The translations under genes were made by a program, and so were the position numbers. Below, in pieces: positions 59,898 to 61,301 of a stretch of 64,000 nucleotides of DNA. Under the pieces are notes generated by a model that had not been told where the DNA came from, made no database searches, and worked only from the letters and a program-made list of their open reading frames with translations. Where the stretch lies: assembly GCF_003334405.1 (NCBI RefSeq), contig NZ_QOWM01000003.1, one strand, 5' to 3'. Origin of the DNA: Escherichia coli (lineage in GTDB: Bacteria; Pseudomonadota; Gammaproteobacteria; Enterobacterales; Enterobacteriaceae). Position 1 is the stretch's first letter. Every line of letters starts with the position of its first letter.

Positions 59898-61301
59898 ATG
59901 AATACAGTACGCAGCGAAAAAGATTCGATGGGGGCGATTGATGTCCCGGCAGATAAGCTGTGGGGCGCACAAACTCAACGCTCGCTGGAGCATTTCCGCA
60001 TTTCGACGGAGAAAATGCCCACCTCACTGATTCATGCGCTGGCGCTAACCAAGCGTGCAGCGGCAAAAGTTAATGAAGATTTAGGCTTGTTGTCTGAAGA
60101 GAAAGCGAGCGCCATTCGTCAGGCGGCGGATGAAGTACTGGCAGGACAGCATGACGACGAATTCCCGCTGGCTATCTGGCAGACCGGCTCCGGCACGCAA
60201 AGTAACATGAACATGAACGAAGTGCTGGCTAACCGGGCCAGTGAATTACTCGGCGGTGTGCGCGGGATGGAACGTAAAGTTCACCCTAACGACGACGTGA
60301 ACAAAAGCCAAAGTTCCAACGATGTCTTTCCGACGGCGATGCACGTTGCGGCGCTGCTGGCGCTGCGCAAGCAACTCATTCCTCAGCTTAAAACCCTGAC
60401 ACAGACACTGAATGAGAAATCCCGTGCTTTTGCCGATATCGTCAAAATTGGTCGTACTCACTTGCAGGATGCCACGCCGTTAACGCTGGGGCAGGAGATT
60501 TCCGGCTGGGTAGCGATGCTCGAGCATAATCTCAAACATATCGAATACAGCCTGCCTCACGTAGCGGAACTGGCTCTTGGCGGTACAGCGGTGGGTACTG
60601 GACTAAATACCCATCCGGAGTATGCGCGTCGCGTAGCAGATGAACTGGCAGTCATTACCTGTGCACCGTTTGTTACCGCGCCGAACAAATTTGAAGCGCT
60701 GGCGACCTGTGATGCCCTGGTTCAGGCGCACGGCGCGTTGAAAGGGTTGGCTGCGTCACTGATGAAAATCGCCAATGATGTCCGCTGGCTGGCCTCTGGC
60801 CCGCGCTGCGGAATTGGTGAAATCTCAATCCCGGAAAATGAGCCGGGCAGCTCAATCATGCCGGGGAAAGTGAACCCAACACAGTGTGAGGCATTAACCA
60901 TGCTCTGCTGTCAGGTGATGGGGAACGACGTGGCGATCAACATGGGGGGCGCTTCCGGTAACTTTGAACTGAACGTCTTCCGTCCAATGGTGATCCACAA
61001 TTTCCTGCAATCGGTGCGCTTGCTGGCAGATGGCATGGAAAGTTTTAACAAACACTGCGCAGTGGGTATTGAACCGAATCGTGAGCGAATCAATCAATTA
61101 CTCAATGAATCGCTGATGCTGGTGACTGCGCTTAACACCCACATTGGTTATGACAAAGCCGCCGAGATCGCCAAAAAAGCGCATAAAGAAGGGCTGACCT
61201 TAAAAGCTGCGGCCCTTGCGCTGGGGTATCTTAGCGAAGCCGAGTTTGACAGCTGGGTACGGCCAGAACAGATGGTCGGCAGTATGAAAGCCGGGCGTTA
61301 A
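59898..61301 (+). CDS. fumC: Class II fumarate hydratase, 467 aa
   Basis: Fumarate-lyase signature [16 protein letters not shown]. Confidence 0.97.

Follow-up and report, generated by a model that had tools for sequence, protein, structure and literature searches.

Introduction

When two opposed genes end within the same four bases, only CTAA, TTAA, CTAG and TTAG can hold both stop codons. Four base pairs (bp) is the modal length of such overlaps, 58 convergent overlaps were counted in Escherichia coli, and the Rho-independent terminator of an overlapping pair must sit within the coding sequence of the partner gene (Lillo and Krakauer 2007, PMC2174442). The ends of Rho-dependent transcripts have a described layout of their own. 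In Rho-dependent E. coli genes, a stable stem-loop without a U-tract is followed immediately by a Rho-utilization (rut) site, with diffuse termination further on, and PNPase and RNase II trim the transcripts back to the stem (Dar and Sorek 2018, PMC6061677). Here, we analyze the convergent junction of fumC and tus in a 64 000-nucleotide (nt) stretch of E. coli DNA (NCBI RefSeq assembly GCF_003334405.1, contig NZ_QOWM01000003.1), which we call the window. The overlap of the two genes is true, ordinary and already in public annotation. What the locus adds is specific: an RNA stem, conserved across the Enterobacteriaceae, that is encoded in tus and, judging from the sequence, appears to belong to fumC.

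The fumC–tus junction

The junction is defined by three features.

59898..61301, + strand: fumC coding sequence, from the list of open reading frames (ORFs) and the annotation in E. coli genomes and MG1655.
61298..62227, − strand: tus coding sequence, from the ORF, the MG1655 annotation and Pfam PF05472 on homologues.
61298–61301, both strands: TTAA common to both stop codons, read from the sequence.

The fumC gene encodes a class II fumarase of 467 amino acids and ends in GGG CGT TAA, its stop codon occupying 61299–61301. The tus gene runs from 62227 to 61298, encodes 309 amino acids and ends in GCA GAT TAA, its stop codon being the reverse complement of 61298–61300; its annotated start is the ATG at 62227, which differs from the GTG at 62239 called by the ORF program. 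The window is a K-12-like sequence, and 1 kb around the junction is matched in 5424 of 5426 complete E. coli genomes at 97–100% identity, with fumC and tus annotated. In MG1655, tus (1684259..1685188, +) and fumC (1685185..1686588, −) have the identical 4-bp overlap. The pair is thus a member of the convergent 4-bp class, with two real, opposed coding genes and both stops inside one [TC]TA[AG].

The original prediction, made from the sequence alone, held that the two stop codons overlap in TTAA and that no intergenic terminator lies between the genes. The sequence, the ORFs and the RefSeq and MG1655 annotation bear out the overlap, and an intergenic terminator is impossible because zero bases separate the coding sequences. 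It overlooked a dedicated intragenic element on the fumC side: within tus, a conserved stem-loop begins 12 nt past the fumC stop codon.

To compare the junction across the family, we took one genome per species, yielding 80 Enterobacteriaceae loci with Tus identities of 69–98%. A convergent fumC adjoins tus in 79 of them. The stop-to-stop distance is −4 in 44 loci (TTAA or TTAG), 0 in 20 (e.g. TGATTA) and −11 in 11; the rarer classes are −14 (one locus), +10 (two loci) and +35 (one locus). Because the distance varies from −14 to +35, TTAA itself is not conserved, and it is the near-absence of a spacer that is conserved. In the remaining locus, from Klebsiella indica (L059, 3434–4875), a convergent MFS transporter gene follows 65 nt after tus and replaces fumC.

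A conserved stem-loop inside tus

The element is a single hairpin in the RNA of fumC sense.

61313..61354, + strand: conserved stem-loop in fumC-sense RNA, supported by folds, pair counts, strand asymmetry, dips in synonymous variation and an unbiased scan.

It lies wholly within tus (codons 292–305, among the last 18 codons). The 5′ arm (61313–61325, CAGGUGCAGCCGU) and the 3′ arm (61342–61354, GCGGCUGCGCCUG) form a 13-bp stem around a 16-nt loop (61326–61341), and the arms correspond to the Tus codons for R302-L-H-L305 and Q292-A-Q-P295. In the window sequence, the fumC-sense stem-loop has a minimum free energy (MFE) of −24.5 kcal/mol. When the 80 nt past each fumC stop codon were folded, all Enterobacteriaceae loci gave this hairpin, with a mean MFE of −23.8 kcal/mol.

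We quantified the conservation of pairing in a gap-free alignment of 79 distinct sequences. Pairing is retained in 94.4% of cells, 6 of the 13 pairs have changed on both sides, and none of 500 shuffles matched the observed pairing or covariation score. The both-side changes tie synonymous changes in one arm to amino-acid changes in the other: the Leu codon CTC occurs with Gln-to-Glu, and the Arg codons CGA, CGC and CGT occur with Ser, Ala or Thr. In Klebsiella indica, an A-U pair fits the Pro-to-Thr change at codon 295. RNAalifold, applied to the same alignment, recovered 7 bp in the middle of the stem and no more. An unbiased scan for all 12-bp stems with loops of 3–40 nt, run in both senses across the entire codon alignments of tus and fumC, found one locus alone that reaches at least 85% pairing (fumC sense, 96.6%; tus sense, 85.4%).

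The arms also restrict the choice of synonymous codons. With expectations derived from tus's own codon usage, the observed/expected synonymous entropy drops at the arm codons Q292 (0.27/0.77), A293 (0.58/1.76), P295 (0.22/1.58), L303 (0.46/1.95) and H304 (0.43/1.00), and shows no drop at the loop codons L296 (2.43/1.95), L298 (1.95/1.95) and P301 (1.62/1.58). At R302, the codon is CGG in 58 of 80 loci, compared to 17% of Arg codons gene-wide. A293 uses GCG or GCA; neither GCC nor GCT occurs there.

An Rfam search of 60800–62400 (E <= 10) returned two chance matches of about 15 bits only. The dyad may already have been noted when fumC (1986) and tus (1989) were first sequenced. Elsewhere in tus, codons 80–88 (about 61964–62000, − strand) form the other stretch of low synonymous variation across species, with a ratio of about 0.56, and no conserved stem was found in that stretch. 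Beside the stem, the last tus codons contain GTATGTTG (61303–61312, − strand), which equals positions 6–13 of TerB; as a Ter site it was rejected, since the rest fails the Ter consensus, and we judge the match to be chance.

The strand under selection

An inverted repeat can fold in either strand's RNA, and the pattern of third bases discriminates between them. In the arms, the 4-fold third bases, read in the tus sense, are G in 330 cases, A in 30, C in 13 and T in 5; for the same amino acids elsewhere in tus, the proportions are 45% G, 32% C, 15% T and 9% A. Among non-G third bases, A is favored in the arms over C and T together (odds ratio 9.1, p = 3e-13, uncorrected for phylogeny). When G becomes A in the tus sense, C becomes U in the fumC sense; the fumC-sense RNA then keeps a G-U wobble pair, while the tus-sense RNA acquires an A-C mismatch. 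We counted 130 G-U cells (51 without the invariant pair) versus 14 A-C cells. In 75 of 79 species, folding in the fumC sense gives the more stable hairpin (mean MFE −23.8 versus −17.9 kcal/mol), pairing is 94% in the fumC sense versus 83% in the tus sense, and the window's inverted repeat has an MFE of −18.6 kcal/mol when folded in the tus sense. Because the wobble pattern and the fold stability both favor that strand, the selected molecule is most likely the fumC-sense RNA, and neither the tus mRNA nor a DNA palindrome.

Relatives with a spacer

The first search for Tus homologues returned close relatives only, and more distant Tus sequences came from a search of representative genomes. The convergent arrangement of tus and fumC is older than the Enterobacteriaceae, and a spacer separates the two genes in five loci from outside the family.

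L090, Erwinia rhapontici: spacer of 39 nt.
L091, E. amylovora: spacer of 61 nt.
L092, Pantoea agglomerans: spacer of 43 nt.
L086, an AT-rich metagenomic relative with a Tus 47% identical: spacer of 74 nt.
L093, a metagenomic relative with a fragmented fumC: spacer of 141 nt.

A canonical terminator, consisting of a stem and U5–U9 after it, is present in four of the five spacers; examples are AAAAGCCAGGUCU-UAG-ACCUGGCUUUUUUUUU in Erwinia rhapontici and AAGCCAUCUCAUUUAAGAUGGCUUUUUUU in L086; a clear stem plus U-tract was not found in the E. amylovora spacer. In all five loci, the positions homologous to the arms form 5–7 of 12 pairs with energies of −3 to −10 kcal/mol, and the stem is missing. 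On the simplest reading, the Enterobacteriaceae lineage lost the terminator in the spacer, and a stem inside the tus frame then took over as the 3′ hairpin of fumC.

Two side observations concern these relatives. In L093 (3494–4655), Tus is 43% identical and the downstream fumC is broken into three ORF fragments; this fumC is probably a pseudogene. Three independent Erwinia-like tus assemblies (L083–L085) stop 29 nt past the tus stop codon, within the terminator hairpin, and their shared ends look like an assembly break at a palindrome.

Transcription past the junction

Three further features lie beyond the stem in the direction of fumC transcription.

61355..61367, + strand: tail after the stem, AGGUUUAUAACGG, with three consecutive U; codons P291, K290 and Y289.
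61356..61459, + strand: C-rich, G-poor fumC-sense stretch and candidate rut region; C 31–32%, G 21%, C/G about 1.5.
61560..61620, + strand: published Rho termination region, placed approximately, with its best position at MG1655 1684895 (−), equal to about 61591 in the window (Adams et al. 2021).

The stem differs from a canonical intrinsic terminator. Its 13 bp are GC-rich, but the loop has 16 nt where 3–8 nt are expected, and the tail AGGUUUAUAACGG lacks a U-tract, for which about 7–8 nt are expected. The tail codons carry no synonymous constraint (observed/expected entropy of 0.83/0.98 at K290 and 1.88/1.58 at P291). On both strands, a consensus terminator scan of 59700–62500 found nothing resembling an intrinsic terminator for several hundred bases around the junction. 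The stem without U-tract after fumC contrasts with the textbook terminator of fumA, 1.5 kb upstream, where GCCGCCC-UUCG-GGGCGG and U7 (59761–59785, + strand) follow 6 nt past the fumA stop codon; the consensus scan reported the fumA terminator on the − strand only.

The sequence does have the layout of the Rho-dependent class, in which a stable stem-loop without a U-tract sits near the end of the coding sequence. The excess of C over G just past the stem is rut-like by composition alone, and 61356–61459 is a candidate Rho-utilization region directly past the stem. Further downstream, a bicyclomycin-sensitive Rho region antisense to tus was measured by Adams et al. 2021 (Supplementary file 2), with a Rho score of 5.6 (p = 5.8e-7). 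When mapped through MG1655 coordinates, its best position (1684895, −) lies 290 nt past the fumC stop codon. The reads in stretches of 800 nt on its upstream and downstream sides were 83 and 16 without bicyclomycin, and 36 and 39 with bicyclomycin (Adams et al. 2021).

The original prediction also held that each transcript enters the other gene as antisense RNA, unless termination is intragenic. Read-in is supported by this Rho region and by ExcludonFinder, which places tus-fumC among 165 convergent pairs whose transcription overlaps in half or more of 58 MG1655 RNA-seq samples (PMC12288877, Table 1). For transcription from tus into fumC, the excludon listing is the sole evidence; we looked for a mapped 3′ end or a Rho region in that direction and found none.

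A proposed mechanism for the fumC 3′ end

We propose that the stem serves a Rho-terminated fumC mRNA as its protective 3′ stem-loop, perhaps together with some weak intrinsic termination, at a spacerless tail-to-tail junction. The proposal follows from the agreement of the layout with that described by Dar and Sorek 2018 (PMC6061677), and we consider it probable, though by no means assured. The spacer, 39–74 nt long in the wider Enterobacterales, would have been lost in the Enterobacteriaceae, and the stop codons would then have drifted to distances of −14 to +35, with TTAA (−4) in Escherichia. The last 18 tus codons would now encode the stem-loop at the end of fumC, with arms Q-A-Q-P and R-L-H-L that are mostly G-ending and include the uncommon CGG. 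Since a U-tract is missing, RNA polymerase would probably pass the stem in most cases and enter tus antisense across the C-rich stretch, and Rho would release the polymerase within about 300 nt. The 3′-to-5′ exonucleases would then trim the tail to the stem, which would stabilize the fumC mRNA.

Several observations weigh against this proposal. The covariation score of 0.139 compares to 0.117 for a control slid by 3 columns and, because of this control, covariation alone is only moderate evidence. Randomizing synonymous codons in the E. coli sequence alone yields an equal or better fold in 5.8% of cases (p = 0.058), which is not significant, and the Tus amino-acid motifs in the arms themselves favor complementarity. 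Pair 16-39 is mismatched in 6 of 11 Klebsiella/Raoultella species. The statistics treat related species as independent, uncorrected for phylogeny. A 16-nt loop is long for a terminator-type hairpin, and the stem is intact in Klebsiella indica, where fumC is not adjacent. Finally, the curated Term-seq tables (Adams et al.) contain no 3′ end within MG1655 1684800–1685399, the TRS tables contain no E. coli fumC terminus, and the SMRT-Cappable-seq tables mention neither fumC nor tus. Low fumC expression under those conditions could explain the missing 3′ ends, or no stable end exists.

Alternative explanations

The stem and its UUUAU tail could instead act as a weak Rho-independent terminator near 61360, with Rho handling the leak. 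A stem of −24.5 kcal/mol that begins 12 nt past the stop codon is at the usual position for a terminator, UUU begins 3 nt past the stem, canonical terminators occupy the same place in the relatives, and inefficient intrinsic terminators backed by Rho probably exist (PMC6061677). However, the tail holds 3 consecutive U where 5 of 8 are required, the loop is 16 nt long and the consensus scan is silent; K290 and P291 in the tail are unconstrained, GGUCUGUA appears in the tail of some species, and a Rho-dependent region has been measured downstream. We regard this account as unlikely. Regulation by mutual antisense transcription, where the induction of fumC (e.g. by superoxide) lowers tus through antisense RNA, RNase III or collision, and the reverse, is somewhat harder to credit. 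It would fit the presence of tus-fumC in the published E. coli list of convergent pairs and an adjacency conserved across Enterobacterales, but we looked for reciprocal expression data on tus-fumC and found none, and Rho seems to halt the fumC read-through within about 300 nt of the 930-nt tus. Adjacency also does not require overlap, because the relatives keep the gene order with an efficient terminator in the spacer. Such regulation is compatible with a protective stem-loop and does not exclude it.

Two other accounts dispense with a fumC-sense element. The complementarity could have no RNA function and be a by-product of the conserved QAQP...RLHL residues together with a bias towards codons that end in G; in its favor, amino-acid conservation is high, the arms mostly use the most common codons, the shuffle of the single sequence gives p = 0.058 and the covariation of the control slid by −3 is sizeable. 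Against it, the entropy dip is limited to the arms and missing from the equally conserved loop residues I-I-P, R302 is CGG in 72% of loci versus 17%, and A293 lacks GCC and GCT though C and T together make up 47% elsewhere in tus. Adding the both-side changes and the stem's position as the single outlier among candidate stems in 2.3 kb, we find a by-product improbable. Very improbable, in our judgment, is a structure that acts in the tus mRNA, by slowing ribosomes near the stop codon or stabilizing the tus 3′ end, or as a DNA palindrome. The tus-sense fold does reach −18.6 kcal/mol and Klebsiella indica keeps the stem without an adjacent fumC; but pairing is 83% in that sense versus 94%, 75 of 79 species fold more stably in the fumC sense, and the tolerated changes give fumC-sense G-U pairs. 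Ribosomes would melt a stem in a translated ORF, and a pure palindrome would be intolerant of strand-specific wobble.

The tus side and TerB

Two features bear on the fate of tus transcripts and on the replication fork trap.

61100..61297, − strand: tus-sense RNA past the tus stop codon, antisense to the fumC 3′ end; C/G mostly above 1, and 1.2–1.7 in the first 130 nt or so.
62238..62260, − strand: TerB (AATAAGTATGTTGTAACTAAAGT), about 10 bp upstream of the tus ATG and the window's only exact match to the Ter consensus.

The tus-sense RNA at 61100–61297 contains no conserved structure, and no dedicated tus terminator was found in it. One candidate, a hairpin at 61165–61235 (− strand) followed by UUUUUU from Lys-Lys codons, was rejected because its z-score against shuffled sequences is −0.7, its codons are unconstrained and 75 aligned sequences have no consensus structure. 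The hairpin inside tus cannot end tus transcripts without truncating tus, because it lies upstream of the tus stop codon. The weakly expressed, autorepressed tus would have no dedicated terminator, and its transcripts would probably continue into fumC as antisense RNA, to be halted there by Rho or by a polymerase coming the other way.

TerB is the site of Tus autoregulation, through which tus is autorepressed (PMC8707476). It lies downstream of any fumC read-through. On the protective stem-loop proposal, fumC transcription would not get as far as the tus promoter and TerB, which lie another 940 nt downstream. TerB is also a replication fork barrier that blocks clockwise forks, so that its permissive face would point towards tus and fumC, and any fumC transcription escaping termination would arrive from that side. 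A more far-reaching version of the proposal holds that, after the loss of the spacer, the fumC stem was rebuilt in the Tus frame, which would constrain both synonymous and amino-acid choice (P, S, A or T at 295 versus the Arg302 codon), and that the stem, together with Rho, insulates the permissive face of TerB from stress-induced fumC transcription. This is speculative and, on balance, quite unlikely. If true, it would tie the termination of a metabolic gene to the replication fork trap; without such insulation, the transcription could displace Tus, disturb the autoregulation of tus and weaken the fork barrier.

Other tight convergent pairs nearby

In the 50 kb of MG1655 that match most of the window, there are six convergent pairs; tus/fumC overlap by 4 bp and ydhK/sodC have a spacer of zero. 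Within the window, sodC (+) and ydhK (−) abut at 22448|22449 without a spacer, which repeats the tus-fumC pattern; a Rho region antisense to ydhK lies at MG1655 1723937 (−) (Adams et al. 2021), and ExcludonFinder lists the ydhK-sodC pair (PMC12288877). Just beyond the window, folM and ydgC overlap tail to tail by 4 bp (L001, 1696–1699; MG1655 1681695–1681698), making them the third tight convergent pair inside 45 kb, and a Rho region antisense to folM has been published at MG1655 1681110 (−). The sodC/ydhK junction (22449) is displaced by 96 nt from the position predicted by a colinear MG1655 map; therefore, an insertion or deletion of about 96 nt relative to MG1655 lies somewhere between 22449 and 61301.

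Discussion

The overlap alone changes nothing, being annotated and typical. The stem offers a clean, testable case in which the RNA 3′-end element of one gene would shape the coding sequence of its convergent neighbor across a family, and the Erwiniaceae relatives that keep a spacer, most with a terminator, provide a natural control. Changes to the 3′ end of tus by recoding or deletion, or tags fused to the Tus C-terminus, could alter the stability of the fumC mRNA and the antisense transcription of tus. Codons 292–305 of tus should not count as neutral in codon-level analyses.

As a convergent overlap, fumC/tus is a plain member of the 4-bp class (PMC2174442), with no difference from it: the bases are TTAA, the length is modal and the terminator is confined to the partner gene, while the tetramer varies even among close genera. 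Like the convergent excludons (PMC12288877), tus-fumC has overlapping transcription units in most MG1655 RNA-seq samples, an assignment based on the overlap of transcription. The overlapping bidirectional terminators of Ju et al. 2019, as they are summarized in bioRxiv 10.1101/2022.10.23.513370, place a single hairpin at a convergent boundary, as here; unlike those of that summary, the E. coli hairpin lies upstream of the tus stop codon, is strand-asymmetric and has neither A- nor U-tracts. It is in Erwinia rhapontici and L086, and not in E. coli, that an element of A-tract, stem and U-tract stands between tus and fumC in the manner of a bidirectional terminator. The closest likeness is to the protective 3′ stem-loops (PMC6061677): the fumC stem is likewise stable and without a U-tract, and is followed by an excess of C over G and by Rho termination downstream. 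Unlike that class, it lies in another gene's frame, co-varies with that gene's codons and has a 16-nt loop. From its sequence, we read the stem as one of the 3′ stem-loops of Rho-dependent transcripts, here embedded in the convergent neighbor.

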